NCBI GenBank assembly: GCA_051362555.1
Contig: CM120640.1
Span: 51,128,788-51,192,787, forward strand
Direction of reading: 5' to 3'
Origin: Lingula anatina
Lineage: Eukaryota > Animalia > Brachiopoda
DNA length: 64,000 bases
Numbering within the stretch: position 1 is the stretch's first letter; every line of letters begins with the position of its first letter. The notes beneath the pieces are model-generated. The model saw nothing but the letters and a program-made list of their open reading frames with translations. It was not told the DNA's origin and did no database searches. This document shows positions 369-47,442 of the stretch, piece after piece. The position numbers and the translations under genes are program-made.

Positions 369-3300
369 AATATATGTGCTCTGTGGCTACTGCTTCTGTC
401 CACCAAGGCAACAAAAAGTTTTAGTGTGGTCGAAATGGCAGAGGGATTTAATAACTTCCCAAAGGGACCGCTCCAGGATGATAGTGAGTATTAAACTACT
501 AAGCACGAAATGCTTTCTCTTCTAGCTAATTTGCATTAAAATGCTTCATAAGATGTCACTAAAGTGAAAGTAAAACCGAAGAGTTAGGCCTTTATGCTGG
601 TTCATTAATTAAGTAGTTACATGTATATCATACAATCCATTCTTTTCTAAACATTTTTGACATCGAAATTATAAAACACTACCAATTTTGTAATATGTGT
701 CATTTTGCTTAATAGGTGGAAGCTTGCGGATAAGAAGACAAACAGACGGCCAGACTGGTGAGATCTTATACATGTTCTTCTCTTTGATTTATATTTAATT
801 CTTGTATTATTTGTTGTGAGAAATGATACAAAGATTGAATATTGCGCCCCCCTCTCTTTGTCTTTCTTTATCGCTCTATATTAACTTGTTGTAACAGTGC
901 AATAAAATGTAATGAGTAACAGAGTCTTTAGCCTCGGTCACAACCGCCGTACGGGCTCTTACTGGCAGTTTGCGTCCTAATTTTGCGCAGAATCTCACGT
1001 CCCACGCAAGTCCTTCTTACGCAATTTCGAGTTCGCAGACCCCGTAAGCACGTACGGAGGATGTTGGACATGTCCAAAAGATTCTACGAATAGCCTGCGA
1101 ACAGCGAGGCCGCAAGCGTAACTTGCTCCCCTCGCACGGAGTTAGCAAGAGAGACGCGCGTTGTGCAAGACGCACGTCGCAAGCAATGAAGGAGCAAGTG
1201 CCCTTTGCGTGTTGAGTAAGGCGCACGCCCTCACAACTAACGAACAAAGTCGAGAGCACACCGGGAATGCGTCGCACGTGCGTCACCCCCCACGCCTGAT
1301 GTATAAAAGGCGTGCTCACGACGCACGCTCGTGTCTTTACAATGAACGTCCACTGTGTAACGTGTACGACAATTTCGTGCGTCCGGTTGTGACCGAGGCT
1401 TTTACTGTTGTAAGTTGTATGAAGTACCAAATACTGACGACATTCAGTAGGTGTAACTTGGAATGTATTTAAAGTTTCTTAAAGTTGTGTAGCAAACTAA
1501 AGCGTTTGTGGATACTTTGAACGTTGGAGACATGATCAAAGCATAAAATCGTTGACATTTTGAAATACAAAAACCTCATTTTAGAGACACTTCAGACTTA
1601 CCGTGTATCTCTACGGGTTTATTTCAATAAAAATGATTTTTAAACCTAACCTATTCTTGTCCTCCCTTTTCTACTCATCTTCTCTCTCATAATGATTGTT
1701 CTTTTTGTCTCTATTTTCAGTAAAAACTGCTGGAGGAACAGAATTTGTGATAATGTTTATGAACAATATTGTAGAGTCCAGTGACACCACACCCTTAGAA
1801 TTATATTACACTGGCGCTGATGACGCCATAAGCACAAGGATAAATGTCAATGTGACATACTACAGCCCGGCAAGTGGAAGCATACAGCATATAGAGCGTG
1901 TTTTGATGAGATCGACCGATATAGACTCCGTTCAATTAGACTACCAGCTGAGGACTATGACAAAAAATTCCATATCCAACTTTGGAGTTCAGGTGACATC
2001 CAGCGAAGCTATTATTCTGTACGGTATGAATAAAGCGCGTTATTCCTCCGACGGCTTTCTTTCTATCCCTGCCTACGTACCCGGAAAAGAGTTCATAACA
2101 GTTGGCTATCACCCTCCCACCACCGCATCGCAGATAGGCATAGTGGCCCAGCAGGACAACACCATGGTAACTGTGAGGCTACCGGCTAACAGAGTCTTAC
2201 CTGGCAACATCACTACGTCCATCGAGGTGAGGGATCCAAATACTCAAGCCATTGTTACAGCAGGAGGTACAATCACCGTTACACTTAATCGTTTGCAAAC
2301 CTACCTTATTGTAAGTAATGCCGATGACGGAGAACTACCAGCAGCTTTTAATTTGTTGAAGGGAGATTTGACAGGTACACATATAACCTCAGACAAAGAC
2401 ATATCTGTCTTCAGTGGTAACATCAGGACTTCGATATTGCCCCCTGCTAGTATAGATCAGCCTTCGAGAGACCATTTAGTAGAGCAGCTGCCACCTTTGG
2501 AGACATGGGGTCAAAACTTCATCACCGTTCCAGTCCCACGACCAGCGAGCACAGCTCCTCTGTACGATTTGTTCCGGATAATCAGCGGCTCCCTTAGTCC
2601 CAATACCATCACCATATATCATAGCAGTGATAACATTACAACACTAACCATCAACAACCAGGGTGGCTCTGTCGATGTCAAAATTGGTACCTACGCATAC
2701 ATCGTTTCTGCTTATCCAGTCTTGGTTGCCCAGTTTGTCTTGAGTCAGCAGGTTCTAAATGTTGACAAGGCAGATCCTAGTATGATCTTGGTCCCGCCAA
2801 TTGAACAATACCACGACGATTACCATTTCACAACACCAGCTGCAGTTGGTACCACTTACGACCATTTTTTCCTAATCGCAATACGAGACAACTTCAGGGG
2901 TTCTGTGTTACTTGACGGAGCGGCGCTACCGTCCGATACAACTTGGACCACTATACCTGGTTTAGGTGGATACAGTGGGGCCGTACTGAGTATCGCTGCC
3001 GGTGGTCACAATATTACTCACAATTCTGAGACTTTTTTGGGTATACTGTATGGAGCCGGGGACAGAGAGAGTTATGGACTGCCTGTTGGAATGCGCTTCA
3101 ATCGAATTGTTCCGGTAAGAATGATTAAATTAATATATGAACAATTTTACAGTTTGGAGAGATTACAATGTAGTCATTCAAATAATGTATAGTAAAACAT
3201 CTTTTTTCACCACCTTTTCTTCAGTCATAATATACCCTAAAGGTACCCCCCCTCCCCCGATGAAATAGTATCCTATATCATTGTTATCATCCTTATGTGA

Positions 3301-6300
3301 TGGTTGCACGACCAATCGCTTTAATTTGTTTGTCAGCCATTCCTTAGTTAGCAAAATACTTCGATGAATAATACCACACCTTTTTAAAACTATCAACCAA
3401 ATTAGCAACTGAGGTCAAGTACCGTACTAGTGGGTTATATTTTGGATAGTGTTAGCTTGAAATATTGTTCAAAAATTTTTTTTTAAAGATAATATACCAC
3501 AGCTAGCTGGCCTGTTAACGAAAAGAACTTATACATGCACAAAGCATAAATATATTCTTAAACAGACAAACTTGCAAGAAAAGGGGGGGGGTTGAATAAA
3601 GTGTCTAAGTGTCTGTAGGTTTTTATTGTTCTGTAACAAAACATGCGTGCTGTATGCCTAATATAACGGTCACTTATGGACATGGGCATACAATTTGTTA
3701 GCAACCATGTTTGAGTTGTGGGAGGACGACTTTTTGTCCTGACAAGAATTGACTCTCAGTATTCGTGTCTGTCAGGAAAAAATAAGTTACCGTTTCATTA
3801 AAATTTGCTTTGACGGAGTTATTCACACTAAGTCTGCTCTTTTGGTTGAATTCTGTTAAGTGGTTAACGAGCAGAACCTTTCCTAATTTTGAGGAAATCA
3901 AAAATGTTCAGTTTTTAAATTTAGAAATGCATTGGCCCTTGGTATGGTAAGTGATTAAAAGTAAAAACAACCCCATGGGAACCTTAATGCTCTCGTTTTA
4001 TGCTCAAAATCCGCCAACACTATGGGTTTGTCATTCAACTCCCCTAAAATAACACCGACCAAGCCTCAAATTTAACTGCCATGCTCTTTGAATTATCATA
4101 TTTGAAAAAGCAAAACAAAACGAGACAAAAAAAAAGTCAGTTTCGTCGCTCGTTAAGCAACTTATCCACTTTGTCAGACCTTCGAAAAAAATATCTTATA
4201 ATTAACTTAATGATGTCCCGTTTTCTTTTTTCAGCTTCCTCCAGGTATGAACGAGTGCTCAACCCCTTAACTCGTAGCTGAAAACAAAAGTTTGATGTTT
4301 AATCTTTGTTATACTTAGTATCAGAATATCAATATTTAAGTAATAGTCGTGATTCTATTATATGATATTGCTTAAATGTCACAAAATGTGATCAGAATTT
4401 AGTAGAAATGTGGGCAGATGAGCTAATTGATTTTAAAATAATCATAAATATCATTCTACGTGTTTTATGTTTTTAACAAAGGTAAACCGTTCTAAAACCT
4501 GGCTAATCAGTACTCTTTTACAGGCCCAACAGGACCAACTGGACCGACAGGTCCAACAGGGCCTACGGGGGCCACAGGCGCAACTGGTGAAACTGGTGCA
4601 ACTGGACCTGCAGGACCCAAGGGAGATACTGGTCCGAAGGGAGACACAGGGGCAACGGGAGCCACTGGAGGGACGGGTGCTGCAGGCAACACTGGGCCAA
4701 CTGGGCCAACTGGACCCACTGGCAGTAAAGGTGCTTCCGGAGAAAAGGGTGCCATTGGTTCCACTGGTCCAACAGGTTCCACCGGTGCCACAGGTGCTAC
4801 AGGTCCTAGAGGAGAAACTGGAGCAACTGGACCACGTGGAAGTGTTGGTGAAACTGGGCCGCAAGGTCCAAAAGGTGCTGTAGGTGCGACAGGCCCTGCT
4901 GGTATGACTGGTGCAACAGGTTTAAAGGGGGATAAAGGTGGCACCGGAGAAAAAGGAGCTATTGGCCAGACAGGAGCAACTGGCATGAAAGGCACCAGTG
5001 GACAACAAGGCCCAACTGGGCCCGTTGGGCCCACTGGTGTAACAGGGCAGAAAGGTAGCAAAGGGGAAATTGGCATCAAAGGAAACTCTGGAGTGGATGG
5101 TATAAAAGGTGAAAAGGGTGTACAAGGGGACAAGGGCAGCCTTGGTTCAACAGGACCGAAAGGGAATCAAGGGAATACCGGGAATACAGGGCCAGCTGGA
5201 GCAAAAGGACAGAAAGGTGAATTTGGCGCAACAGGGGAAACGGGACCTGTTGGCCCAACTGGACAAAAAGGAAATTCTGGTGCAATTGGCGCAACCGGAC
5301 CAGCCGGCAATAAGGGAGAAAAAGGGCAAATTGGTGCAGTAGGTGCCACTGGCGCCACAGGCCCAACTGGGGCAATTGGCCCAACAGGCCCTCAAGGACA
5401 GAAAGGAAATGTGGGTGCCAAGGGCGAAATAGGAGCCAAGGGATCGATAGGAAATACTGGTGCGACTGGCAGTACAGGCCAGAAAGGCGACAGAGGACAG
5501 ATTGGACCAACAGGTCCAACAGGATTGACAGGCTCCCAAGGTATACAAGGAGAAACGGGTCCTAAGGGAGACAAAGGCATGCAAGGAGAGAAAGGTACAC
5601 AAGGTGAAATTGGTCCGACTGGCCCCACAGGAAATAAGGGAGAGCAAGGAGCTAAGGGAAATGTTGGCAATACTGGACCAGTGGGAAGTAAAGGGGACAA
5701 GGGAGAAATTGGAGCAGTAGGTCCAACTGGCAGCACTGGCGCTACTGGGTCTAAAGGGGACAAAGGAGATCTTGGCCCCAAAGGTGTTCAGGGTCAAACT
5801 GGACAGACAGGTCCTCAAGGCAATACTGGAAATAAAGGAGAAGTAGGGCAAAAAGGAGAACAAGGAATACAAGGAAATACCGGTCCCACTGGGGATGTTG
5901 GGCGTACAGGAGAGAAAGGGGCCATTGGTGATAAAGGGCAGAAAGGTGTACAGGGTTTTACTGGAGCAACTGGATCTACTGGCGCCACAGGTGCTACAGG
6001 TGCCACAGGAGCCACTGGTCCTAAAGGTGATTTAGGATCAAAAGGTCAGAAAGGTGCTATTGGACAAACAGGAGTTCAAGGACCCAAAGGATCACTAGGG
6101 CCTACTGGAGCGACTGGCGTCACCGGGAATAAAGGTGAAAAAGGTGTTCAAGGCCAAATTGGAAATACTGGACCAAAAGGAGCCAAGGGAGAATTAGGCA
6201 ACACAGGGCCTACAGGAAGTGTTGGTCCGACTGGTGCAACTGGACCACAAGGGATTTCTGGAATTAAGGGGAATGTTGGAAACACAGGGCCTACTGGTTC

Positions 6301-9300
6301 TACGGGTGCGATTGGCTCCACTGGAGCCACGGGTCCAAAAGGAAATGTGGGAAATACGGGTCCAAATGGACAAAAAGGAGTGCAGGGAGAGAAGGGCAAT
6401 GAGGGGCCGACTGGAGCCACTGGAACTACAGGGGCCACAGGCCAAAAAGGTGCAATTGGTGGCACTGGCCCAACTGGGGCAACTGGTTTAACTGGTCCTA
6501 TAGGAGTAACAGGCGCGACTGGTGCTGTTGGACAGACGGGCCCAGCTGGAAGCACTGGACCAAAGGGTAATAAAGGAGAGATCGGTGCATCTGGGCCAAC
6601 TGGTCCAAAAGGCAATATAGGGGCAACAGGAAACACTGGAGCTACTGGTAGCACCGGAGCAACTGGACCCGTTGGTTCTACTGGTCCTGTAGGTTCTACT
6701 GGAGCAACAGGGGTTACTGGCGCTAAAGGGAATATAGGAGCCACGGGACCAATTGGTGCCACAGGAGCAACTGGTGCCACTGGTATCCAAGGTAACACAG
6801 GACCAAAGGGAGAAAAAGGTAATATAGGTAATACGGGAGCAACGGGTGACAAGGGTGCTCAGGGTAATACAGGACCCAAGGGACAGAAGGGGGCCTTAGG
6901 TGCTAAAGGGCAAAAAGGTGAATTTGGACAGAAAGGTGTCAAAGGAGAGTTAGGAGAAAAAGGTTCCGTTGGTGCGACAGGAGTAACTGGGTCCAAAGGA
7001 GAAAAAGGAAGCATTGGGAGTAAAGGTGACAAAGGTTCAATTGGTTCAACAGGACCAGTTGGGGCCACTGGCTCCCAGGGAAACACTGGACCCACCGGTG
7101 CAACGGGTTCCACTGGTCCAACTGGTGTTACTGGTGTGACAGGAGCTAAGGGCACTAAAGGTGATCAGGGTGTCCAAGGCAATACTGGCCCTGTCGGATC
7201 AACTGGTGCCACGGGCCCCACGGGCTCCACTGGGGCTACAGGCCAAACTGGACCAAAAGGAATTCAAGGGCAAACAGGATCCAAAGGATCTGTCGGGGAT
7301 AAGGGAAGTAAAGGTGATGTGGGAAATACTGGTGCTACCGGACCTGTGGGTGCAACTGGAGCTATGGGAGGCACTGGACCTGTAGGTGCCACTGGTCAGA
7401 AAGGTGCAGTTGGTGCCACAGGAAATACAGGGCCGAAGGGAAACATTGGAAACACTGGACCGATAGGTGCAACGGGGCCAACAGGGGCAACAGGAAGCAC
7501 TGGACCTGTTGGTGCCACTGGTCCTGTAGGTGCCACGGGTGGTAAAGGAAACAAAGGTGAAAGAGGTGCACAAGGTCTGACAGGAGCAACTGGTACAACT
7601 GGTCCTGTCGGTGCAACTGGTGTCACTGGTCCACAGGGAAATAAAGGCGATAAAGGTGAAATAGGCAACAGTGGCCCCATGGGTCCCAAGGGAAATGTTG
7701 GAGCAACTGGAGCCACAGGTTTAAATGGAAATACAGGGCCAACAGGGGTGACTGGACCGGTGGGTGCCACTGGAAATACAGGCCTCCAAGGTTTAACAGG
7801 ATCAACGGGTGTAACAGGTCTAAAGGGTCAGAAGGGTGAAACAGGGAATGTAGGCAGTACTGGTCCAACTGGCCCCGTGGGATCCACAGGCAAGTGCATT
7901 ACCTAGCTAAGCTGGATATAACGGGTTTAATATCTAGAGACGTATATATTAAATGCTAACCCTTAATGGAATCAATTTTAAATGCTTGTTTTAGGCATAA
8001 CCGTGTCGCTCAATTTATTTTTCGTTTATATGAATCATTGCAATTTATATATATAACATAAGCCTGAGTTTTTGAAAAAAATTTAATGATTAGGCACTAC
8101 TGGGCCACAGGGCAACTCTGGTCCAAAGGGCGAGATAGGTGAAAAGGGGGCTGTTGGCAGTACAGGTCCAGTTGGAAGCACTGGTGCAACAGGGCCAGTA
8201 GGTGCAACTGGAGCCACTGGACAACAAGGACCAAAGGGAGATGTTGGAAACGTAGGTCCCACTGGCCCTAAGGGTGCTGTAGGTGCCACAGGTGAAACTG
8301 GACTGATTGGTAATACAGGCCCGATGGGTCCTAAAGGCAATAACGGCAATACTGGAGCCACTGGACCTGAAGGTGCCACTGGTCCCCAAGGACCAAAAGG
8401 TATCCAGACGTCTTTTAGCCAGTCCTCTTCTTGTTGAACAATAAACTGGATAATTATAACTTTTGAAATGTCAAAAGTACTACATTATTCGTGATAAAAT
8501 ATATTGATACTTATAAGCAAATATTTCTGTAACGTGAAAAACAAAAATATTGTGTAGATTTTTAAAACTTCTATATTCTTTGGCACTGTTACTTATGGTC
8601 AGCATTGTTATTGCCAAATTTTCTCACTTAGGTGAAAAGGGGATTCAAGGAATTTCAGGCATTACCGGTTCTAAAGGAAACCAAGGCGAAAAGGGCGTTA
8701 TCGGACCCACTGGGCAAAAAGGGGAACAAGGAAATACGGGGTCAGTTGGCCCAACTGGTGCAACAGGACCTATTGGACCTAAGGGGAATGTAGGGGCAAC
8801 TGGATCCACTGGACCTGTTGGTGCGACAGGACCTACTGGTACAAAGGGAGAGAAAGGTGTCATTGGGTCCACTGGACCAAAAGGAGCCGTTGGCGATAAA
8901 GGAAGCAAAGGTGATGTTGGACCCATTGGTGCTACTGGCGCAACAGGGCAGAAAGGAGAGACTGGTGAAAAGGGTGTGCAAGGTATATCGGGGATAACAG
9001 GTGCCAAGGGAGAACAGGGCCTACGAGGACCAAAGGGTGAAGTAGGAGAAAAAGGGAGCAAAGGAGAGATAGGAAACACTGGTTCGACAGGTGCAACAGG
9101 TTCTGTTGGAGCAACAGGCCCCGTGGGAAATACAGGTAATGCTTTAATTATTGTGTTGTGAGCACTTTATGAATTTTAGCCATGTTTGAGTATTGCGGTA
9201 TATTTACGCGCGTTATTTATGGGAGGAACTCTCTAACATATCATATACATTAGCTGATGCTGTTTAAAACGGATTCTGATCATTCCATATTAGGGGCAAC

Positions 9301-10402
9301 TGGTCCATCGGGACCAACGGGAGGTACAGGACCACAGGGACCAAAGGGTGAACAAGGAAATAAAGGAGATCAGGGGAATTCGGGACCGATAGGTCCAGTC
9401 GGTTCCACTGGATCTGTTGGTCCGACAGGTGCGACAGGATCCACAGGTCCAGTTGGAAGTACGGGCCCCATTGGACCTACTGGAGGCACAGGGTCTATGG
9501 GACCCACAGGACCTACAGGGGTCAAGGGTGAACAAGGTGTCTCTGGGATAAAAGGCCTGAAAGGAAATGTTGGTAAGTTATATTTCCGTGCAGCAGTTTT
9601 AAGATGGTCGTTTTAAGATGAGTTTAATGATGTACGAAGAATAAACAATAAGCACAAGATAACAGTAAATATTCCTTACATTAGACATAAATATTATTGC
9701 GTTTAAGTGAATGTGTCATCGATTTGACTAGATTCTTCTTTTACGTTAAGGCGCTAAAGGAGAAATCGGAGAAAAGGGTTCCAAAGGAGATCTCGGGTCG
9801 ACGGGCTCTACTGGACCAACAGGTCCTTTTGGTCAAAAGGGTGACCGGGGAGCTACGGGACCAGTTGGAGCTACTGGACCACAAGGCATCGGTGGACCAC
9901 CAGGACAAAAAGGAGTCCCTGGCTCAGCTGGCCCAACTGGAGCAACAGGCCAGAAAGGTGAAGTTGGTGGTGTTGGAGCAACAGGAGCAACTGGTCCACA
10001 GGGTGCAACTGGAAACAAAGGTTCAAAGGGCGAAGTTGGGGTCAAGGGGGAGGTGGGTGCAACAGGAGTATCAGGACCCCAAGGTGCAGTTGGCGCAACT
10101 GGTTCGACTGGACCTATGGGTCCAACAGGAGAGAAAGGGGCGCTCGGCCAGAAGGGCGAGCGGGGATTGGTTGGACCAACTGGACTTAAAGGTAATGCAG
10201 GAGAAAAGGGAGAAAAAGGAGCATTGGGATCTAAAGGAGATACTGGATTAACTGGTGCTACAGGATCAAGTGGCCCCACTGGACCTCAAGGGAACAAAGG
10301 TGAACCAGGTGCTCAAGGGCCAAAAGGTGAACCTGGTTTTAATGGTACAAGAGGACTGAAGGGAGATGTTGGGCCACAAGGGCCACCAGGTAAATTATTT
10401 TT

Positions 10403-10487
<85 letters not shown>

Positions 10488-11118: not shown

Positions 11119-11176
<58 letters not shown>

Positions 11177-34489: not shown

Positions 34490-34574
<85 letters not shown>

Positions 34575-37500
34575 AACACATACAGGGAAAAGGGGATATT
34601 TTATCCAGCCTTTCATCAATCATTTGTCATTCCATTTAATCATTTATCTATACAATAATTCATTATAAGTTTGTAGACATATTTTCATTGCCATTTTCAG
34701 TGCTCTTTCTGCATTGTAAATATTTTTTTCAGTCCAAAGACAAAATTCTGGTGGACGCCGCTTCCTGCTAATGTTCATGGAAAATCGAGTGGAATCAAAT
34801 ACGAATCCACCTCAAGACATTTTCCTCACACCCGCTAGAGATGCTACCAGTTTAGTTTCTGTCAATATCACAAACATTTTCGACACTTCATACAACCAAG
34901 TTATAACTTTAGTTCGTAATCAAGTTGTCTCGATAACTGTTGGGGCAAACGTTCGCATGATGAGCGGGAATATTATAGAAAACAAGGCAATTCTAATCGA
35001 GTCTACAGAAGACATCGTTGTTTACGGTGTAAACAGAGAAGCTTTTTCAGTCGACGGTTTCTTAGTCTATCCGATCGAAGCCATTGGATCGTCGTATTAT
35101 ACCGTAAGCTACACCCCAGCCACTACCAGGACAGAAATCGGCATTGCTTCTGTGTACGACAATACCCCTGTTCGCGTCACTCTACCGAACCGGGCTCTGT
35201 CTGTACAATGGGCAGGAACAACTTATGGCGCAAATGGAGTCATTGAATTCACTCTGAACAGTATGCAGACCGCTCTCATTCAGTCAGATACAGACGGCGA
35301 TCTCACAGGAACCAGAGTTGAAGTTACCGTTGCTTTAGTGAACGGCCAAATGCCTAAGCTCGCAGTATTTAGTGGGAATGTCCGCACAGCCGTGAAGCCC
35401 GTGACCAACAACCCTTCACGAGATCATCTGGTGGAGATGATACCGCCCATATCCTCGCTCGGAAGACGTTGGTGCTACGTGCCTATACCAAACAGAACAA
35501 CTGGAGATGTCGTTCGTATAGTTGCAAGCGAGTCTGGTGTTACAGAGCTAACCGTCGTTGATGACACAGGTTCTAGGTTTTATTCCATAGTTGGAGCCGG
35601 AAGTTACACTGAGCTAAATATTTTTAAGTACTCCTATCTGTACACAAATAAGCCCGCCCTTGTAGCCCAGTTTGTAATCAGTCAACTAACAAGTCAATCG
35701 CCTGAAGAAGCCGATCCTTCGATGATCATAGTTCCACCAATTGAGCAGTATGACAATGACTATCATTTTGCAACCCCAACTGGTGTAGCAAGTGCCTACA
35801 CTAATTATTTCTTACTGGTCATCCAGAATGCATCCAGAAGCGGAGTCTTGCTTGATGGTCAACCTGTTGCTAATGTTCAGTGGACCGACATCCCTGGCAC
35901 CATATATGTAGGAGGATATTTCACTGTTTCTGATGGAGCCCACAATATTAGCCACCCTGTTGCTGGTATTGACTTCATGGGTATCCTTTACGGCGCAGGT
36001 GATCGTGAGAGTTATGGTTTACCTATTGGAATGAGACTTGAAGAGATAAATGTTATTGTAAGTACTTATAACCTTTTCAAGTAAACGTGAACATAGGTTT
36101 TATAATTATTTTCACAAGCAATTCTATCTTAAAGAAAGATACATATTCAAAACTATTTAAGTAAAAATTTGAATCAAGCGTTATATATTTTCTGCTTGGA
36201 TGAAAGGATGCCCATTTTTTTTCTAATAGATGTTCCTTGTTTAATCATACAACCGCTTTAATTGTCTGAATTATTAATCATTTGATTTTCGACTTTCCTT
36301 TTTTAGCCTACAAGCCCCCCAGGTAAGTGAACTAAGAACACAACAAACTGTAACATTACTTAAATTGTGTTAATAACCAGATAATATTGTTATATCTAAA
36401 ACTGATTGACTTTTTATAATATTTTAATGTTATTGGTTGTTAAAGAAAGACCAAGGCAATATTTATTTTGAATACTTCCAGGTCCTCCAGGTCCAACAGG
36501 GCCAACTGGACCTGCCGGCCCAAAGGGTTCTCCAGGGGTAACTGGTCCTACTGGTCCAGTTGGGCCCACTGGTGCCATAGGCCCAAAAGGAGATGTTGGT
36601 CCTCAAGGTCCACAAGGCATCACGGGCAACACCGGTCCCCTGGGGCCCACAGGACCAAATGGCCCCATGGGTCCACAGGGTGATCCTGGATTCAATGGAG
36701 CTAAAGGTGACCAAGGTGCACAGGGTCCAACAGGTCTACAGGGTGTAGCTGGCCCTCAAGGGGATACGGGTCCAACAGGACCACAAGGTATCCAAGGGGT
36801 CCAAGGACCAACTGGTGCTGCTGGACAAAAGGGAGAGGTGGGTGCACAGGGACCAACTGGCTCTGAAGGACCACAAGGTGTACAAGGTCAGTCAGGTATC
36901 ACAGGAGCGACAGGACCTCAGGGGTTACCAGGTGCCCCAGGCTCATCAGGACCAACAGGGCCCCAGGGTTCTACTGGGGCTGTTGGAGCCACGGGCGCTA
37001 TTGGTCCAACAGGACCTGCGGGTGCTAAGGGCGAACAAGGAAATATAGGTCAAAAGGGAGCCCTTGGTAGCACAGGTCCAACAGGTCCAGTGGGAGCTAC
37101 AGGGATCCAGGGAAATGTAGGTCCAAGTGGGCCTACTGGCGCACAAGGTGTAATTGGTCCACCTGGTCCAACCGGCAGTAGAGGAGAAACAGGTACCACA
37201 GGTCTTCAAGGCCCAATAGGTCCACAAGGTCCCACAGGATCCAAAGGTGACCAAGGAGTAACAGGCGCTGTTGGAGCAACAGGAGCTACAGGACAAAAGG
37301 GAGAACAAGGAAATGTTGGTCCATCAGGGCCACAGGGTCCAACTGGTCAAGCTGGTGCTGTAGGGCAAACAGGAGTAAAAGGTAATGTTGGCGCAACAGG
37401 TGCAGTGGGACCAAATGGAGCAACTGGACAAAAGGGCAGTCAAGGTAACACTGGACCACAAGGTAATGTTGGCGCAACTGGATCTCAGGGCGCATCAGGG

Positions 37501-40500
37501 CCGACGGGAGCGACTGGCCCTACAGGTGCCCAAGGAGCAGTTGGCCCCACTGGAGCAACTGGTGTAGCAGGTGCAACAGGAACCAAAGGATCAAAAGGAG
37601 AAGTGGGAGCAACTGGCACACAGGGCGTGGCGGGACTAACTGGTCAGAAAGGTGAAATTGGTAATAAAGGTGATAAAGGGAATGTTGGCGCCATTGGCCC
37701 AACTGGTCCACAAGGTGCCATTGGTGTGTCAGGCGTCCAAGGACCAACTGGCAGTAAGGGCGATATAGGAGCTAGTGGACCGACTGGAGCAATAGGCCAA
37801 AAGGGAGCATTGGGTGAGAAAGGGAATGTTGGTCAGAAAGGCGACCAGGGAGCCATTGGTCCCACTGGAGCTACAGGAAACACTGGTCCACAGGGTACAC
37901 AAGGTGTGAGCGGTCCAACTGGTGCAACAGGAAGCAAAGGTGAAGTAGGGGCAAAAGGAGTACAGGGTAATTCTGGGGCAAATGGACCAACTGGAGCCAC
38001 CGGTGCAGTAGGAGCCACAGGGCAAAAAGGACAACAGGGAGTGTCTGGAGCTGTTGGGCCGACGGGTGCTACTGGAGCTACTGGACTTAAAGGAAATGTA
38101 GGAGCTACGGGAGCCCAAGGTTTCACAGGCGCAGTAGGCCCTACTGGTGCAACGGGAGCAAAGGGAGCCATAGGAGACCAGGGCCCAGTGGGAGCGACTG
38201 GTGCCGTTGGGCCTCAGGGCAATACTGGACCTGTTGGAGCTAAGGGACAAAAAGGTACTGTGGGACAGAAAGGAGAGCAGGGCATCCAAGGTGTGTCTGG
38301 TGTCTCAGGTCAACAAGGGGCAGTTGGTGCAACGGGAGCACAAGGAAGCTCTGGCCCGACTGGAGCCACTGGGATAACGGGTGCAAAGGGAAACGTTGGT
38401 GCTGTGGGACCAACTGGGGCTCAAGGGCTTGCTGGTGCAAGCGGACCTACCGGAGCAAAGGGAAATGTGGGTGCAACGGGTGCAGTGGGTGCAACGGGAG
38501 TAGCAGGAGCATCTGGACCGACTGGGGCGACTGGTCAAAAAGGTGATCAAGGCAACGTAGGTCCAACTGGTGCAACTGGAGCCCAAGGAGCCACTGGTCA
38601 GAAAGGTGCTCAGGGTAACCAGGGGGTTTCCGGTGCACAAGGTCCACAAGGTAATGTCTGATGTTATATGAAACATTTGCTGTCAGTGCATCCTTCTTTT
38701 TCCACTTTTTAGTGATATTTTTATTTGTACCAATTTGAAATACAAATGTTAAAAGTACATACAGATATCCATGTTAAGGAAATGGGAATAAAAAGCTGTA
38801 TATAGCACTTTTTTAACATATGTATAAAAAGTTCGTATATTCGTTTCGTTTACAAGCAATAGACAATTTGCACATTTTATTCATTGAATTGGCAGGTGTT
38901 ACTGGTGCGACTGGTCCACAGGGTGCCCAAGGTCTCACGGGAGCAATAGGTCCACAAGGATCAACAGGTCCTCAAGGACCAACAGGTGTAACTGGATTAC
39001 AGGGTGCGTCTGGAGTGACTGGAGCAACTGGGCCAACTGGACAAAAAGGCACAAAAGGAGCCCAAGGTGTATCAGGTGTAGCAGGTCCAACCGGCGCAAC
39101 TGGACAAAAGGGCTCTGTAGGTGCTGTAGGTCCAACAGGGGCACAAGGAATCCAAGGGGTCAGCGGTGCTAATGGACCGACAGGAGCTACAGGTACGGAA
39201 TTCTTCGTATATATGCAGAGCAGTTAAATTGGTTATGAGAGAGAGGGGGAGGAGAATCAGGGTACATAATAAGCAGTGCTTTTTATGAACACGATTTCCG
39301 TGACATTGATTATAGAGAGAACAGGACTTGTAGTTAAACACTTTACTCCATTAATTCAAACATTTTAATTTTACAGGCCCAACAGGTCAGAAGGGTGAAC
39401 AAGGAATACAAGGAAACTCTGGTGCTGTAGGACCAACTGGTAGCACAGGTCCACAGGGTAACGTTGGTCCAACTGGAGCTACCGGTGCAACTGGCGCTCA
39501 GGGTCAATCAGGTTTACAGGGTCCTACTGGTAACACAGGGGGTACTGGGCCAACAGGAGCCATTGGTGCCACAGGGAGCAAAGGGCAAAAAGGAGTGCAA
39601 GGAGCATCTGGAATAGCTGGACCTACGGGTGCAGTTGGCTCTAAAGGACAGAAGGGAGATGTCGGGGCTGTTGGAGCTAAAGGAGCACAGGGTATACAAG
39701 GTGTTAGTGGCAATATTGGTCCCACAGGGGCAACTGGTCCTCAAGGACAGAAAGGTGAAGTTGGAAACCAGGGAGCATCGGGTGCAGTTGGAGCAAAAGG
39801 TCAGAAAGGAGCGTTGGGAGCGACCGGAGCTGTTGGTGCCACTGGAGCTACTGGTCCACAGGGCCAGACAGGAGATAAAGGAGCCCAGGGAGTTTCTGGA
39901 GTTCGAGGTTTAACTGGTCCTACCGGCGCCACTGGTGCAACTGGTGTCCAAGGCCAATCCGGAGCAGCTGGGCCCACAGGAAGCACAGGAGCTACGGGAC
40001 CAGTTGGAGCTACTGGCCCCAAAGGTAACTTGACTCAAATATTTTTCAGTGTCTCTAAACTTTGATTCTGGATACTGCTTAAAATATTTTAATGTGTGAG
40101 GAAACCTACGGATACAAAAAAATAGGGTGTAACTTAACTGGAGGTGCAACTTAACTTCTTTTAGGTGAAATCAACTGCATTGTGTTCATTAATTAATAAC
40201 AGTTAGCCTTTAACACACACACATACACACACATTTTTGTTTAATTCTATTAAAACGTGTTTGTTTGTTTAGGTGAAGTTGGGCAGAAAGGATCACAAGG
40301 AATACAGGGTATCAGTGGAGCAAATGGGCCAACTGGAGCTACTGGGCCTCAAGGTCAAAAAGGTCAGAAAGGTATACAAGGGGTATCTGGTATTGCAGGA
40401 CCAACAGGAGCTACTGGTCCTCAAGGCCAGAAGGGGGAGCAGGGTATACAGGGTGTTTCAGGAGCAAATGGACCCACTGGAGCCACAGGTCCGCAAGGCC

Positions 40501-43500
40501 AGAAAGGTCAACAAGGTATACAGGGAGTATCTGGATTGGCAGGCCCAACAGGTGCAACGGGACCTCAAGGTCAGAAAGGCCAAAAGGGTATACAGGGTGT
40601 ATCTGGAATAGCAGGACCAACCGGAGCAACTGGTCCTCAAGGTCAGAAGGGTCAGCAAGGTGCTCAAGGTACTTCTGGGGCAGTTGGAGCGAAAGGTCAG
40701 AAGGGACAACAGGGTGCATTTGGACCCCAAGGCCAGACAGGAGCAACAGGCCCTGCGGGACTGCAAGGCGTGTCCGGTGCTGCAGGACCAACTGGATCAA
40801 CAGGTCCAACTGGGAGCCAGGGCCCTGTTGGGGCAACTGGCCCACAAGGTAAATGCCCTTTCTTTGAATTATATATTACTGTTAAAAGAAATGATTGAAT
40901 GATCCATAAAATAATGATTGATATTATTCTTACTGCTGTAATATGTTATGAAATTTGAAAAAGATATTAAGAAAATAAAACGCTGGTTTCTGTCTTAAGG
41001 TGTTCAAGGTCAGAAGGGCCAGAAAGGAGTGCAAGGTGTATCTGGAATAGCTGGACCTACCGGAGCTCAGGGCCCACAAGGTTTTACTGGCCAGAAGGGT
41101 ACAAAGGGTGACACTGGTGCAACTGGTGCTCAGGGTACATCCGGTAGTATTGGTCCCACAGGAGCAACAGGCCCAGCTGGTGCAAGAGGTGAAACAGGAG
41201 TTAAAGGCGAAAAAGGTATGTTTGCATCCTTGGATGCTATTTATGTGTATTTATATAAAATTATGCGTTTCCTATTACTGAAACTGCTTTGTTCAAAGGA
41301 TAAATTTCTTGGACCAACATAAGCAGTTTGTCAAACCTTTCTGAACTGTCTTGAAGGAACATGATTTTCTTTTGAAATGTAGACAAACTTTCTTTCCATT
41401 TTTTTTCATGATGCCTTTTTGTACATTTTATACGACTCGAATATTTATTTGAATTTCACTATGTTATCTTTTATTCTATTCCAGGATCGGTTGGTGCAAG
41501 TGGGCCCCAGGGTGTGACAGGAGCAACCGGAATTACTGGAACGAAGGGCCAAAAGGGTCAGCAAGGTGTGTCAGGCCAGATCGGTCTTCAGGGTTCAAAG
41601 GGTACTAAGGGAGATCAAGGAATCCAGGGTGTATCAGGTGCAAGAGGTGCAAATGGACTTAACGGTGAAAAGGGTCAAAAAGGAACAGTTGGAGCGACAG
41701 GGGCAACGGGAGTAAATGGTGCCCAGGGACCAAAAGGAAATCAAGGAGACAGTGGCGCAATTGGACCACAAGGTAAGTTTCGTATTTTATTGCCATTATA
41801 TAAAACTTAGGATGCACATACTCAATTTTATTGCTTTGTTAACTCGTTTAATGATGGCTAGTCATCTCATATTTATTTAAGCTAGTCATCTCAAGTTCAT
41901 TAAAGCTACTCTGGTCACTTAAAAAGTAAATCGCAAAAACATTGCACAGTGCGCTTACTCCGATTTCAAAGAATTACATAATATAAATTGTCCCCTTGTA
42001 AACGTTCGCATTTTGCCAATTTCAATTTTTTAAACCAAAATTTAACGTTATCTTGAAGGACCTACTGGTGCGAAAGGAGAAGTTGGAGCCCAGGGAATTC
42101 AAGGCATTAAAGGTGAAAAGGGTATTCAGGGTAACTCTGGAGCCGTAGGACAAAAGGGGTCAGTGGGTGCAGTTGGACCAACAGGTGCCAAGGGAGAAGT
42201 GGGTGCAGTAGGAGCCACAGGCCAAAAAGGTTCAATTGGTGCATCTGGTCCAACAGGTGTCCAAGGTCTAAATGGTCCTACAGGAGCCACTGGTCCAACG
42301 GGTGCTCAGGGAGCCTCTGGAGCAATAGGTCAAAAAGGTAACAATGACATTCCTCTTGGCTCTGAGATATCTACTTGTATGCAATGTAGTCTCATGTGAA
42401 AAGCTGTCTGCTGTAGGTAGTTTCTTAATGATTTATATATCCTTCAAATCTTTTAACTAAAGCCTAACTAACCTTGTCTTTATTGCACAGGTGAACAAGG
42501 AATACAAGGTCCTGTGGGTGCTAAAGGAAATCAAGGAGCCTCTGGAGCAGTTGGCCAGAAGGGAGAACGTGGTTTACAAGGTTTACCTGGTAATACAGGA
42601 CAAGTTGGTCCCACAGGACAGCAAGGTCCATCTGGTGCTGCTGGTGCCAATGGTTTACAGGGTCCTAAGGGATCAGTAGGATCAACAGGTCCAACAGGAC
42701 AGGTAGGTGCCAAAGGTGCACAGGGCCAAAAAGGTGAGGTCGGTTCATCCGGCGCCGTAGGACAGAAGGGAGAACAGGGTGTTGTAGGACCTACCGGCGC
42801 TCAGGGTCTCCAGGGAATAAAAGGACAAAAGGGTGTGAATGGTGTTCTTGGTCCACAAGGCCCAACAGGTCAGAAAGGTCAGCAGGGTGCGTCTGGAATA
42901 GCAGGACCTACTGGTCTCACAGGAGGTATTGGTCCTGTTGGCCCAACCGGTAGCACTGGCCCCCAAGGATTACAGGGGGTAGTTGGAACAAAAGGACAAA
43001 AAGGCGATCAGGGTGTTCAAGGACAACAAGGACCAATGGGTGCGCAAGGTCCCCCCGGTGTCACAGGTTTACAGGGAACTCCAGGTGTGCAGGGTATTAA
43101 GGGAGAGCGAGGAGCCCCTGGAATGAATGGTAAGTTGACTGTTAGTTTTAACAATCTTTACCAAATTGATTACACAATCATATATATTAAGCTATCTGGT
43201 ATGGAGGCCCATAGTATAAATACACGTATGAGTTCGTTTTTAGGATGGATTAAGACATTTTCTTTCTTTCTTTTTTTTTTTTTTTTTTTTTGACGTTTTG
43301 TTGCAAAACATCAATGTAAGGTTTTTGAAATGTTCGTGGTGCTCAATATGGTCTTGATATTGTACATATGTGACTACTGAAGTTCTTCTTCTCTTTTTAA
43401 GATCACCAATTCAAGTGAACAATGTATGATATTTAGCATTTCTTCATATCACCATAACACAAACGGCTCATTATTGATAGCATGTAACACTTTGTGCATA

Positions 43501-46500
43501 TGTGTCATTACAGATACAGATGAGTGTGCAACTAATAACGGAGGCTGCGGAGATATCTGCATCAACACGATTGGGTCCTACTATTGTACATGCAGCGAAG
43601 GGTACCATTTGGCCCGAGCTAATGTTTCGGTCTACACCAATAGAGTACCCAGATCTCAGTGCCCAGCGGATATGGCGGGGAAAAGGAAAAAGAGACAAAG
43701 TAATATTTATATATAATTTAAAATGTAGTAAAATAAATATGTTATTTAAAAAGAATAAACTGTTGGTAACGGTTCTGCACGACGTATATTTTCTGTAAAA
43801 TTACACTGTTAGATACAAACCTTGTGTATTTTATTTCATGGTATATTTATCGGTGAAATAAAAATTACATAATTTGACAGAATCCATCAATTAAATCTAA
43901 TTTTTTTTTTATTACAGCATCTTCAACACTTCTTGATGCTATTGGCACTGATTACATGGTGATGTTCACAGAAAATCGAGTGCAAGACGGTCCAGGTCCT
44001 AACCCATTTTTTGAATGTTTCATCACTCCTGGGAGGGACACGATCACAGTAGCCTCTCTAAACATTACCTATTACAATACTAACGGAGATTTAGTGAGAT
44101 TGCCAAGGATGGTGCTTGGTGGTCAGGTATTGAAAGAAACTCTTGATGAGCCGACCCTGGTACTGAGAGGAAGCGTCAAGGAAAGAAAGGGTGTTAGAAT
44201 TCAGTCGAGTGAGGATGTGGTGGTCTATTGTCTAAACAAAAATAGCTTTTCAACAGACGGCTATTTGGCTCTTCCGAAGGATGCTCTAGGCAATAGATAC
44301 TATACTGTCTCTTACTCTCCTCCTAGATTCCAAACTGAATTAGGTATTGCAGCCACAGAAGACAACACTCTTGTAACCGTTACACTCCCTCGTAAGTTCA
44401 ACGCTAGCGAGCCCGATTTGCAGGTTACTTACAACGGCCAAACGTATCGTAACAACGACGTTATATCAGAAACTCTCCAAATGTACGAGGTCCTTCAACT
44501 ACAAAGCGATGGGGGCACACCAGGTGATTTGACCGGTGCACTGGTTGTGTCAAGTAAAACTGTTGCTGTCTTCAGTGGTAATGTCAGAACCAATATCCTC
44601 GGTTTGACACCAGGCAACACTCCTTCACGTGACCATTTAGTAGAACAGATGATCCCTGTGACATCTTGGGGCAGAGACTATGGTACGGTACCCATTCCAG
44701 ACCGAACAATTGGTGACTTCTTCAGGATCGTTGCCGCCGAGGACAACACGGTGATTACACGTATTTCAAGCAACGGCGAGACAAAAACTTACACCATCCC
44801 ATTCGCTGGCGGTTATACCCAGGATGAATTTTCTTCCGGTGTATACTACCGTGTGTATGCAAACAAACCAATCCTCCTCCAACAAATGGTGAAGAGTCAG
44901 ACAAGCAGTGCAGAACTTGCTGATCCATCCATGATCACCGTAGTGTCGGTCGAGCAGTACAGCAACGACTATCACTTCCTGCTCCCAACATCAGTATCAG
45001 GATCCTATACGCATCATTTAATGATAATTATGAAGTCCCAGTTCACTTCTACGCTACGATTAGACGGAGCCGCTCTGAGTCTAACATGGAACCCGATCCC
45101 CAATAATCCGAACTCCCCACAAAATGACGGTTTGGTTGGGGCCCACGTCACGGTGACCGGAGAGAGCCAAAGCCATGTTATCAGAAGCACAGACTCTAAT
45201 GTTAACTTCATGGTGATCATGTACGGCAATGGAGACAGGGATTCGTATGGTCTACCGATTGGGATGAAACTTTTACTTCTGAACCCGGTAAGTACTTGAA
45301 AGCGCATAAAAGCGAATGGGTGAAATGGATGTAGAGCTACTTCGAATGCTCTATTTAAATGTCGTGCATGTCCTCTTTTTTTTAATGATACTTAAATTTA
45401 GTGCCTTGTTTGGTTATACTTTTTTTAAATTTAATTTAAATTAGAAATATTTCGATATATCATTTTAAAAGATTTAATATAAATATATATTTAAAAGATG
45501 TCTTTTAGTTACCCGACAAGCTCTGTTGAAAAATCTAACGAATGTATCTTTTCTTTTCTTTTGCAGCCGGTGCAATCAGAAAGTGAGTTTTTTTTTAATT
45601 ATAATATTACAATAAAGCAAATTTATGTAATTATTCAGTATCGATCTAGCATTCCCATTTTTATTTTACTTGGCTAGTTTAGTTGTCCTTGTTGAAACGA
45701 TTAACACGTGTGTCTTTATATACACGTATTACTCCATTTCAGTTTGTAACACTGATGCTGCTGGTACTTGTTGTACATGTCACGTTGGAAACAATGTCTA
45801 CCTTCCCTACGAGGGCGCTGCGCAGGCCTCTTGTTGTTTACGTGAGTACAAATATCCTTCATTTTAAATATCCTTCATTTTAATTTTAACTTAAAAGTTT
45901 TAATGATGGGTCCCATTTATTCACACACACGCACGAACACATTGACACGGATATACATGTATATATTACTTAAAATGATTATTTGATCTTTTAAAGATTG
46001 AAATACTCGTATCACTTTTCCAGTGGAAAATATCCGTTGTTACTATCCATGTTGTGGGCGAAAATACTGTGACTGTTTGGTGAATGGCGTCTACATCCCA
46101 TTAAACGAGACCTTCTGTGAAAGTAAGTACAGTACAAGTGCACTTAATTTCACCTTATTTACGGTCATTTCAAAACATAGCTTCTTGCTGTGTGAAATAA
46201 TTTGAATCGACGTACAATATTTCAAAAAATTGGTGAATGTTTGGAATTGTAAATTCAGATTATTGGAAAGAATTATTTCATCATTTTACCGCTTTTCACT
46301 TTCGAATTTTTTTTCAAAACAGACACGAATGAATGCCAGATTGATAACGGACAATGCGAACACACTTGTACTGATACAGTATTTGGCCTCGGCCAGAACA
46401 ACGGTGGATACAACTGCAGTTGCTTCCCTGGGTATCAGTTATCACTGGACTTCCACGAGTGTATAGGTAAGGTACCCGATCAACTACATGTAGCTTTTAG

Positions 46501-47442
46501 TGTAAACATGAAAATACGTTCATAAGATAATGTGAACGACCATCATCAATGCACACCGCAATTTCAGGTTATTTTTGCTTGTAGTGCTTATGCCGTTTGT
46601 GTTTCTTTTTTTATTTTCCACGTTTTATTCCCCTTTTGTAAATGCCTGGTCATGCGACTGGCACTGTATTGCTTCTTTAACTATTCCTCTAAATATTCTC
46701 ACTTTTGTAGATATAAACGAGTGCTCAGGGACATCTCCATGCCCAGCTGGCAATACCTGTGTCAATACTGTGGGATCGTTTTACTGCGTCGGGTCTAGCG
46801 TGGTAGCAGCTGGAAGTAAGTAGAGTGTATACTCACAGTTTTTAGACTATTAAAATATTCCATTGGTAAATATGTAAAAGTAAGACATGATCGTATTTCT
46901 GTATCTTTTCTCATATTGTTTCTTTTGTGAAAAAATACATTTGTTATCTCATTTTTTTTCATGGCCAGCAGCGTTCATTTATTTATTTTTCATTTTATTT
47001 CAGTTTTGTCAACATTGGTTATCTCTAACCATTTGTTTGTTTTTTATCTTTAGGTAGTGCTCAGAGTGGAATGCCGGCTGTAGTCTCCGGAATGTCTGTC
47101 AGTACCATTACAACGGCTCTTACAGGCATCACAATATGGGCGGCCGTCATTACCATTGTGGTAGCCATAGTAATAGCTGTTGGGTTCCGAAAGTGGCGTA
47201 AGGCGCAGTGCAAGTCTGATACGGAGAGCATCTCAGACAAGTCTTCAATTGTGGACAGTCCCTTAAATTTCCATGCCTTTAGGCCTAAAGGTGGTAAAGA
47301 AAACCCCGCCTTTGCAGAGGACACTGAAGATGCCGTAGCTCCCACGTCAGAACAGGAAGAGGTCGGCGAATGGGATTCTTCTCACGATCCTGAAGAACTT
47401 TCTACGCCGAGAGAGGAGGATCCTGTTGCCACGAGATTATAA
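34101..47442 (+). CDS. Gene B: IgGFcBD-collagen-EGF-IgGFcBD-Cys-rich-EGF-TM membrane collagen, ~3009 aa, 20 coding exons
   Basis: Exons 34101-34227, 34406-34447, 34733-36057, 36307-36322, 36482-38650, 38896-39192, 39377-40024, 40273-40848, 41000-41215, 41485-41772, 42059-42337, 42491-43129, 43514-43699, 43918-45287, 45567-45582, 45743-45841, 46024-46122, 46323-46466, 46711-46815, 47054-47442. Total 9030 nt, in frame, all GT-AG. Starts gccATG with signal peptide [20 protein letters not shown]. Confidence 0.9.
34492..34572. repeat. Compound (CT)n/(CA)n microsatellite (gene B intron)
   Basis: Direct observation. Confidence 0.95.
34733..36057 (+). CDS. Gene B exon: first IgGFc-binding N-terminal domain
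   Basis: ORF 34771-36084: [67 protein letters not shown]. Confidence 0.9.
36482..43129 (+). CDS. Gene B collagen triple-helix region (8 exons, 568 Gly-X-Y triplets)
   Basis: Exons of 2169, 297, 648, 576, 216, 288, 279 and 639 nt are all multiples of 9 and phase 1 within Gly codons; total 5112 nt. Confidence 0.95.
40281..40640 (+). repeat. Five tandem 72-nt (24-aa) coding repeats within gene B collagen
   Basis: Unit GQKGxxGIQG(V/I)[13 protein letters not shown] repeated 5 times plus a partial sixth in ORF 40257-40898. Confidence 0.85.
43918..45287 (+). CDS. Gene B exon: second IgGFc-binding N-terminal domain
   Basis: ORF 43956-45299: [61 protein letters not shown]. Confidence 0.9.
47054..47442 (+). 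CDS. Gene B terminal exon: transmembrane helix and cytoplasmic tail
   Basis: [20 protein letters not shown] followed by RKWRK; acidic tail ending ...DPVATRL*. Confidence 0.88.

Follow-up and report, generated by a model that had tools for sequence, protein, structure and literature searches.

Neighbouring genes for likely membrane-tethered procollagens with paired IgGFc-binding domains

Fibrillar procollagens combine one long unbroken helix with a cleavable C-terminal globular part and have paralogous chains of matched length, while the helices of annelid cuticle collagens measure 1-2.4 micrometres. To our knowledge, the described animal membrane collagens are anchored at their N-end, and the procollagens described so far trimerise through soluble domains at the C-end. 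It is established that furin sheds the type II membrane collagens (MACITs) from the membrane (PMC4678570). The IgGFc-binding domain (FCGBP_N, PF17517) is best known from goblet-cell FCGBP and usually lies at the chain N-end; the word collagen does not occur in the main text of the survey of this domain (PMC4948705). Here we describe two neighbouring genes on the + strand of a 64,000-nucleotide stretch of DNA (the window) that join this domain to collagen. We consider it fairly probable, judging from their sequence, that they encode paralogous, C-terminally membrane-anchored collagen precursors of about 3,000 residues, whose helix of about 490 nm would fold at the membrane and be cut by a furin-type protease behind the helix, freeing a rod that bears a single globular head for use in a surface matrix.

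Joined by their coordinates, the exons of each gene splice without a stop codon. Gene 1 yields a frame of 2,994 residues from 19 exons in the window (369..16852, + strand; 369-483, 716-757, 1721-3114, 4235-4244, 4524-7889, 8094-8399, 8632-9135, 9294-9572, 9751-10389, 10658-10666, 10957-11115, 11484-11519, 11707-13076, 13441-13453, 13741-13827, 14174-14272, 14468-14611, 15172-15285, 16554-16852). Gene 2 yields 3,009 residues from 20 exons (34101..47442, + strand; 34101-34227, 34406-34447, 34733-36057, 36307-36322, 36482-38650, 38896-39192, 39377-40024, 40273-40848, 41000-41215, 41485-41772, 42059-42337, 42491-43129, 43514-43699, 43918-45287, 45567-45582, 45743-45841, 46024-46122, 46323-46466, 46711-46815, 47054-47442). 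The initial annotation had begun gene 1 at 369, which proved wrong: its start codon and first coding exon lie upstream of the window, as RNA reads extend beyond 368 into a further exon on the upstream side, which has Met codons in frame. None of the motifs of that exon was found in the window.

The remaining architecture agrees with what the initial annotation had described, namely proteins of about 3,000 residues with the order signal peptide, IgGFc-binding domain, collagen, EGF, second IgGFc-binding domain, 12-Cys module, EGFs, membrane helix and tail. This order is supported by Pfam, cysteine counts and hydropathy, the last being the sole basis for calling signal peptides and membrane helices. 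In gene 1, the hydrophobic core and end of a likely signal peptide (369..419) are followed by a short prosegment ending in the furin-type site RIRR (727..738), the first IgGFc-binding domain (1726..3111; Pfam E 4e-56), the collagen helix in seven exons (4244..10665; Pfam Collagen and triplet count), a calcium-binding EGF domain whose last loop is long and which has one additional Cys (10666..11105; Pfam and spliced translation), the furin-type site RKKR dividing the collagen half from the anchor half (11489..11500), the second IgGFc-binding domain (11712..13076; E 1.1e-59), the 12-Cys module and two EGF domains, the last one truncated (13743..15257), and a predicted membrane helix with a basic stop-transfer stretch and a 55-residue tail (16625..16849). 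Gene 2 repeats this layout on the same strand, with a likely signal peptide (34101..34157), the site RRKR ending the prosegment (34423..34434), the first IgGFc-binding domain (34741..36057; E 3.8e-47), the helix in eight exons (36322..43128; Pfam Collagen and triplet count), a calcium-binding EGF domain followed by RKKR (43129..43695, the site at 43684-43695), the second IgGFc-binding domain (43935..45287; Pfam match and a confident, all-beta structure model), the 12-Cys module with two EGF domains, the last again truncated (45745..46787; Pfam and BLAST), and a predicted membrane helix with an 85-residue tail (47119..47439). Cleavage at these four sites is predicted from the motifs.

Pfam matched IgGFc_binding in all four domain exons (E 4e-47 to 1e-59), two per gene, and Collagen and EGF_CA in both genes, as the initial annotation had anticipated, together with FXa_inhibition. 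The module C-terminal to the second IgGFc-binding domain holds 12 Cys in both genes; it has no Pfam family and matches the Lingula protein XP_013406006. The reported absence of COLFI and C1q was also borne out, neither these nor C4 having a Pfam match in either gene, and the exons 3' of the helix match EGF and IgGFc_binding. Likewise, VWD-C8-TIL units gave no Pfam match in either gene, and the spliced chains leave no room for them. By hydropathy, the N-end resembles a signal peptide and the strongest hydrophobic stretch spans residues 2906-2938 of about 3,000, so that the proposed type I orientation stands for the precursor.

Introns end in AG at all 37 3' ends and begin with GT at 36 of the 37 5' ends, with GC in the other; such spliceosomal introns rule out a bacterial collagen-like gene. 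The RNA evidence comprises short raw reads from runs carrying the same species label, and read depth is continuous along the genes. For gene 2, spliced reads cover 17 of 19 introns, the remaining two falling inside the helix; the covered introns include the collagen-to-EGF and EGF-to-second-domain joints, and each joint from helix to EGF, second domain and membrane exon was read 16-49 times per run. Gene 1 has spliced reads at 15 of 18 introns, and the three without displayed joints, the collagen-to-EGF joint among them, lie between 10389 and 11484 beside masked (TA)n repeats. The initial annotation had the collagen part and the second-domain-to-membrane part in one transcript, which the read joints support for gene 2; for gene 1, where that joint was not displayed, we draw the link from the open frame, the read depth and homology to gene 2. 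Where displayed reads differed from the window in exons, the change was silent in 26 of 40 and 20 of 35 cases, and this, together with the open frames and spliced reads, rules out a pseudogene or chance repeat. Runs X7 and X9 contain reads from both genes, gene 1 at about three times the depth of gene 2; because the likeness cut-offs differed (90 and 93), this ratio was not counted toward a 2:1 trimer. Few or no reads were seen for gene 2 in X1 (9) and X4 (0) and for gene 1 in X2 (41, nearly all partial), which may reflect tissue restriction if the organism was present in those runs.

The approximately 567 Gly-X-Y triplets noted initially form one uninterrupted run per gene (567 in gene 1, 568 in gene 2), that is, about 1,700 residues and a predicted triple helix of about 490 nm. 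Pro occupies 23% of X positions in both helices and almost no Y positions (5, or 1%, in gene 1; 10, or 2%, in gene 2), while Thr fills 41% and 29% of Y positions, respectively. KGE/KGD, a type of triplet reported to stabilise helices (PMC11923368), occurs 57 and 31 times compared with 19 and 6 in triplet shuffles, and none of 1,000 shuffles reached the observed counts. The two helices did not align in an ungapped register test (best 20% at shift 9 versus a mean of 17%), their intron positions differ, and gene 2 contains internal 72-base repeats. The two genes agree exactly in the span from the start of the helix to the 3' end of the second-domain exon. That the helices are matched in length though unalignable hints that the two products could form a heterotrimer. 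No Lys periodicity was found in the helices, and no cross-chain charge register or in-register salt-bridge complementarity between gene 1 and gene 2.

A furin-type motif (R-x-K/R-R) precedes all four IgGFc-binding domains in the window, and the inner one, RKKR, follows the helix by 59-61 residues in both genes, with XP_013406006 having it at the corresponding position. Of the 61 IgGFc-binding domains that were fetched and had sequence upstream, no more than six are preceded by the motif: the four window domains and the two inner domains of XP_013406006. Since all six core EGF cysteines are N-terminal to RKKR, no disulfide is needed across it. With RKKR directly after collagen and EGF, the rod is likely cut from its anchor, and the mature collagen is therefore likely not membrane-bound. 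The term transmembrane collagen used initially thus suits the precursor and probably not the mature collagen, and the products are likely membrane-tethered procollagens rather than resident membrane collagens. After the predicted cuts, both IgGFc-binding domains would stand at chain N-ends.

We envisage that the signal peptide directs the chain into the ER, where the C-terminal helix would keep it anchored in type I orientation. Three chains would be aligned by the anchor half, which comprises the second IgGFc-binding domain, the Cys module, the EGFs and the membrane helix and would replace COLFI or NC1, and the triple helix would zip from there toward the N-end. With almost no Pro at Y, stability may come from Lys-Gly-Glu/Asp salt bridges and from Thr at Y, probably glycosylated. 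Furin would then cleave off the prosegment and cut at RKKR; the products would be a secreted fragment of about 207 kDa and a stub of about 79 kDa left in the membrane, both beginning with an IgGFc-binding domain. The gene 1 and gene 2 products would probably co-assemble, and the released rods could be packed into a cuticle or another apical matrix. A surface-matrix-building role, as first suggested, is plausible.

The closest protein that we found is the uncharacterised Lingula anatina LOC106170605 (XP_013406006, 2,861 aa), which has the same module set, in the order signal peptide, IgGFc-binding domain, Thr-rich collagen with Pro at X, long-loop EGF, furin-type site, IgGFc-binding domain, Cys module, EGFs and membrane helix. 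The initial claim that the genes match no named family holds, in that no named family was found, although this protein shares their design. Module-by-module BLAST gave E values of 1e-11 to 1e-106 (long-loop EGF 2e-17; Cys module 6e-17), and the IgGFc-binding domains are 35-44% identical to those of the window. It differs in having 309 triplets with one two-residue break, a duplicated EGF-site-domain-Cys block, 8 rather than 12 Cys in the Cys module, and no furin-type site before its first IgGFc-binding domain. Its helix chemistry is similar (Pro at X 25%, Pro at Y 2%, Thr at Y 42%), and, as in both window genes, an IgGFc-binding domain immediately precedes this helix. A 16-row clade unites the window and XP_013406006 domains (SH-like 98 in one tree, SH-aLRT 87 in another) and includes three domains from collagen-less proteins; the nearest tree neighbours include ten Logan or ENA proteins. 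Given these shared modules, furin sites and helix chemistry, we conclude that the window genes belong to a family.

In word-index searches, which covered chains of up to 5,000 residues, and in a profile search, no collagen-bearing homologue from an annelid or any other named organism outside Lingula appeared. A metagenome scan returned 79 loci (24-38% identity), all lacking a stretch of eight Gly-X-Y triplets, and the ESM Atlas gave IgGFc-binding clusters only. Fold searches produced no clear match (Foldseek TM-scores ≤0.15; VIA best Z 7.6), a sequence search found no relative with a solved structure, and our literature search found no publication describing this architecture.

These data also bear on other readings of the locus. 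That the long architecture is an artefact, with neighbouring genes joined or repetitive collagen DNA mis-assembled, could be argued from the reliance on short reads and from the three gene 1 and two gene 2 joints not displayed. We regard this as highly improbable, because the same order occurs in two diverged paralogues and in XP_013406006, and the gene 2 joints from helix to membrane exon were read repeatedly at continuous depth. It is also quite unlikely, in our view, that the proteins remain in the membrane, as the initial term transmembrane collagen implies, and serve as tall collagen-stalk receptors or adhesion molecules whose IgGFc-binding head stands some half a micrometre off the cell, with RKKR unused or the halves remaining bound. 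A type I arrangement ending in a tail of 55-85 residues would suit such a role, as would the related Lingula type I proteins P0001, P0244 and P0245, which have three IgGFc-binding domains, TSP1 repeats, 53 triplets, EGFs and a membrane helix without a furin-type site. However, RKKR is a full consensus, kept in both paralogues, present twice in XP_013406006 and family-restricted among the 61 domains; the cysteine pattern requires no bridge across it, and the membrane helix plus tail of the two genes are weakly alike (33%).

Shedding might, on the other hand, serve a different use, the rods forming a glycosylated scaffold in mucus, a tube lining, an adhesive or a shell matrix, their IgGFc-binding heads linking them to mucins. 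The association of the IgGFc-binding domain with goblet-cell FCGBP (PMC4948705) favours this, as do Thr contents at Y (29-41%) that could bear dense glycans and, for Lingula, two mantle-specific FCGBP-like transcripts in a supplement table and four EGF-collagens in the shell proteome (PMC4595640). Nevertheless, XP_013406006 and PF17517 were not found in one supplement file of a 2026 Lingula shell proteome, and an unbroken, length-matched helix would suit ordered fibre packing, so that we consider this use unlikely.

If the reading of a shed, C-terminally tethered procollagen is true, these genes represent a different way of building collagen at the cell surface, with a C-end anchor, no known trimerisation domain, release behind the helix and conservation in the brachiopod Lingula. 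More tentatively, and with the balance against it, they may belong to an undescribed ancient lophotrochozoan class of C-terminally anchored procollagen, in which FCGBP_N would stand in for the trimerisation domain, and which would include the long Thr-stabilised worm cuticle collagens, proteins known for decades with no gene family. Should that class be real, the orphan FCGBP_N domain would gain a testable function, and apical collagen assembly at the epidermal surface would become experimentally accessible. The family offers a concrete test of the role of FCGBP_N, a domain for which we found no solved structure, and it supplies candidates for the genes behind the hydroxyproline-poor, Thr-stabilised surface collagens of invertebrates. 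For recombinant biomaterials, too, an unbroken helix of 1,700 residues that would do without hydroxyproline at Y is of interest.

At about 490 nm, the predicted window helix is shorter than the 1-2.4 micrometres of annelid cuticle collagens; the Riftia, Alvinella and earthworm proteins resemble the predicted window product in shape, with a very long helix joined to globular domains. Glycosylated Thr stabilises Riftia cuticle collagen (PMC11766948), and the window helices resemble it in composition, with 41% and 29% Thr and 1-2% Pro at Y; earthworm cuticle collagen has its imino acid at X (PMC8233474). Alvinellids and Eisenia have giant candidate cuticle collagens that are unlike the window chains, being longer (7,700-8,900 residues) and far richer in Pro at Y (22-33%; PMC12403961). 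The Lingula EGF-domain collagens noted as a group by Luo et al. (2015; PMC4595640, in the part consulted) likewise have a helix followed by EGF and no COLFI, whereas those of the shell are about 780 residues long and Ala-rich, that part of the paper mentioning no IgGFc-binding domains, anchor or cut sites. FCGBP and other FCGBP_N proteins share PF17517 with the window genes, which lack the VWD-C8-TIL units of FCGBP.

With fibrillar procollagens, the window genes share a long unbroken helix, a C-terminal globular part whose cleavage is predicted, and length-matched paralogues. Fibrillar procollagens, however, have COLFI and 54-base exons, and Pro is abundant at Y in their roughly 338 triplets, whereas the window genes have large exons, 567 or 568 triplets in which Pro is nearly absent from Y, no COLFI and a C-terminal part predicted to be membrane-bound. 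The MACITs (XIII, XXIII, XXV and C. elegans COL-99) are likewise membrane-anchored collagen precursors with a furin-type site between anchor and helix. They have short interrupted helices without IgGFc-binding or EGF domains and are type II, with the anchor at an N-end that lies in the cytosol; in contrast, the window genes carry a single run of 567 or 568 triplets, and both the anchor and the putative cut lie at the C-end.

The architecture encoded by the two neighbouring genes is real: an IgGFc-binding domain (FCGBP_N, PF17517), a Gly-X-Y helix, an EGF domain, a second IgGFc-binding domain, a 12-Cys module, two EGF domains, a membrane helix and a tail. Gene 1 (369-16852, plus strand) splices into an open frame of 2,994 residues, and gene 2 (34101-47442, plus strand), 17 kb further on, into one of 3,009; all splice sites are GT-AG save one GC donor. 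Each protein carries a single unbroken Gly-X-Y run, of 567 triplets in gene 1 and 568 in gene 2. Pfam places IgGFc_binding in all four large non-collagen exons, along with Collagen, EGF_CA and FXa_inhibition; the four small exons that encode the 12-Cys modules have no match. Hydropathy picks out one stretch at the N-end and a strong one about 75-100 residues before the C-end, with basic residues after it. The initial annotation, which described spliced proteins of about 3,000 residues with some 567 triplets, two IgGFc-binding domains, a 12-Cys module and a membrane helix, is borne out by splicing, Pfam and hydropathy, and the families it expected (IgGFc_binding, Collagen, EGF_CA) were all found. 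The window is eukaryotic DNA with 39% G+C and microsatellite-rich introns. Exon 5 of gene 1 consists of 3,366 bases of pure collagen, with the GC donor at 7890, and the big domains are flanked by micro-exons of 9-16 bases (4235-4244, 10658-10666, 13441-13453, 36307-36322 and 45567-45582), four of the five being visible in RNA reads as inserted letters.

Short raw RNA reads bearing the window's species label align to both genes, most at 95-99% likeness. Among the differences listed (the first 40 for each gene, leaving out five intronic ones of gene 1), 26 of 40 and 20 of 35 exon differences are silent. Gene 2 collected 2,136 reads in run X7 and 1,472 in X9, with joints displayed for at least 17 of its 19 introns and the other two lying inside the helix; the joints include helix to EGF (43128-43513), EGF to second domain (43699-43918) and onward to the membrane exon. 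Gene 1 collected 5,093-7,507 reads in X7, X8 and X9, part of them on an intronic repeat, and joints are displayed for 15 of its 18 introns; the other three, including collagen to EGF, flank masked (TA)n repeats. Gene 1 begins upstream of the window: at 368 its reads switch to an exon outside it, the final 30 letters of which read in frame and include two Met codons. Runs X1, X2 and X4 hold next to no reads on the genes. Within gene 1 intron 2, coverage of 931-1155 rises to about 700 reads in X8, and the reads continue past both borders into different sequence; this is probably an interspersed repeat that is transcribed.

Elsewhere in the window, 17972-18194, just behind the 3' end of gene 1, is a barely read duplicated fragment: a 237-base copy 86% identical to 12838-13074, the 3' end of the gene 1 second IgGFc-binding exon. 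In the 17 kb between the genes (16853-34100), stop-free frames on the two strands reach at most 146 codons, and the longest has no Pfam family. On the minus strand (about 55935-51050), splicing by eye gives a third gene. It starts with what resembles a signal peptide, continues with Thr-rich, mucin-like exons and perhaps an Ig-like one, and has a membrane helix whose inner end is rich in Cys; no Pfam family matched four of its frames.

The initial annotation described the domains correctly and overlooked four furin-type sites, one before each IgGFc-binding domain. Each domain is preceded by R-x-K/R-R and then Gln: RIRR (gene 1) and RRKR (gene 2) end a short prosegment before the first domain, and RKKR lies 59 and 61 residues behind the helix, downstream of all six core EGF cysteines. 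Among the 61 fetched family domains with enough upstream sequence, such a motif within 30 residues upstream occurs in six, the window's four and two of one Lingula protein. The furin consensus motif is well established, and we infer cleavage because the sites fit it. The cuts would leave a stub of 78-80 kDa in the membrane and release a secreted piece of 206-209 kDa made up of head, helix (about 487 nm, taking 0.286 nm per residue) and EGF. Both IgGFc-binding domains would then be N-terminal, the usual place of this domain in the passages of PMC4948705.

Passages of PMC11923368 place triple-helix nucleation at the C-end. Because neither protein contains a known trimerisation domain, the candidate for trimerisation is the anchor half (second IgGFc-binding domain, Cys module, EGFs and membrane helix). 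Membrane tethering alone can reportedly replace a C-propeptide (Bulleid and colleagues, 1997). Chain selection may be contributed by the second IgGFc-binding domain or by the Cys module through its four additional cysteines. For gene 2, the second domain yields a confident all-beta model (pLDDT 90), for which fold and sequence searches found no clear structural relative. We consider it probable that the chains assemble while anchored, are released by furin and serve in an apical fibrous matrix. The same processing might instead supply a mucus, tube or shell matrix, which we think rather unlikely. A resident membrane receptor would keep its helix on the membrane, from which the predicted cuts would free it, and seems a little less likely again; an artefact, set beside the spliced reads, is very improbable.

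No alignment of the two helices emerges over 201 shifts (best 20%, mean 17%). Their introns are different as well, and a 72-base unit is present in 4.6 copies in gene 2. The helix lengths are nevertheless one triplet apart, and both genes cover an identical distance between helix start and the end of the second-domain exon. Helix length is free between species, because the uncharacterised Lingula anatina protein XP_013406006 (LOC106170605) has 309 triplets; a matched length therefore points to selection for it, and hence to co-assembly of the two products. Shared matrix spacing could be another cause, and a cross-chain charge register between the helices was looked for and not found.

Thr occupies 41% and 29% of Y positions and Lys 23% and 15% (gene 1 and gene 2); bacterial collagen-like proteins also have Thr-rich triplets. 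Pro makes up 23% of X and 1-2% of Y positions, so that Y-position hydroxyproline, the usual collagen stabiliser according to passages of PMC8233474, can hardly stabilise these helices. KGE/KGD triplets number 57 and 31, whereas 1,000 triplet shuffles average 19 and 6 and never exceed 32 and 12; such triplets form stabilising salt bridges and are enriched in collagens of all kinds (PMC11923368, in part). The Thr at Y recalls Riftia cuticle collagen, stabilised by glycosylated Thr (passages of PMC11766948), and the Pro at X resembles the imino acid at X of earthworm cuticle collagen (PMC8233474, in part). In contrast, the giant alvinellid and Eisenia collagens have 7,700-8,900 residues and 22-33% Pro at Y (PMC12403961, in part), and section 12 and two supplements of that paper give no flanking domains for them. 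It is possible, though doubtful, that worm cuticle collagens also come from this class of genes.

Relatives were sought among proteins of at most 5,000 residues by word-index searches (best 70 of 7,991, 16 of 6,203 and 43 of 4,496 candidates) and by a profile-free HMMER search against cluster representatives (best 150 of 6,100), giving 280 proteins with later cluster members. Only six of the 280 have a run of at least eight Gly-X-Y triplets, all from Lingula anatina. No annelid homologue was among the matches listed, which in such crowded searches is weak evidence of absence. XP_013406006 (2,861 residues) has a signal peptide, an IgGFc-binding domain, 309 triplets with one break, a long-loop EGF, RRKR, a second domain, Cys module and EGFs, then RKKR, a third domain, Cys module, EGFs and membrane helix. 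The match to the window proteins holds module by module, with 35-44% identity between domains and E 1e-11 to 6e-17 for the Cys module, which has no Pfam family. In trees omitting near-duplicate proteins, the window and XP_013406006 domains, another Lingula collagen, five Logan proteins and three domains of non-collagen proteins form a clade (support 98, FastTree, 155 rows; 87, quick IQ-TREE, 48 rows). The Logan proteins (P0077, P0078, P0090, P0092 and P0093) are single-exon pieces and perhaps signs of orthologues in other animals; both second IgGFc-binding domains match P0093 best (39-44%). Lingula XP_013396611 and XP_013383271 with isoforms (P0001, P0244, P0245) are type I proteins that combine three IgGFc-binding domains with 1-20 TSP1 repeats, 53 triplets and EGFs; they lack a furin-type site and are candidates for type I collagens that truly stay in the membrane. 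In Lingula LOC106178224 (P0237/P0190), an IgGFc-binding domain leads into a collagen that is interrupted and extremely rich in Thr; the C-terminal domain is of another kind and has no Pfam match.

The main text of Luo et al. reports Lingula collagens with EGF domains (17 genes) and, in the passages concerned, no IgGFc domain (PMC4595640), and XP_013406006 is absent from the passages and one supplement of PMC13425148. A full-text search, with subscription papers mostly outside its scope, found no title or abstract describing an IgGFc-collagen-transmembrane design. By their defining features, the proteins are neither FCGBP, nor fibrillar procollagens, nor MACIT, the type II membrane collagens XIII, XXIII and XXV. 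We regard this unnamed family of collagens as real and its predicted, membrane-anchored biosynthesis as a new form: it would work like a MACIT (passages of PMC4678570) turned end for end, and like a fibrillar procollagen whose C-propeptide is tethered.
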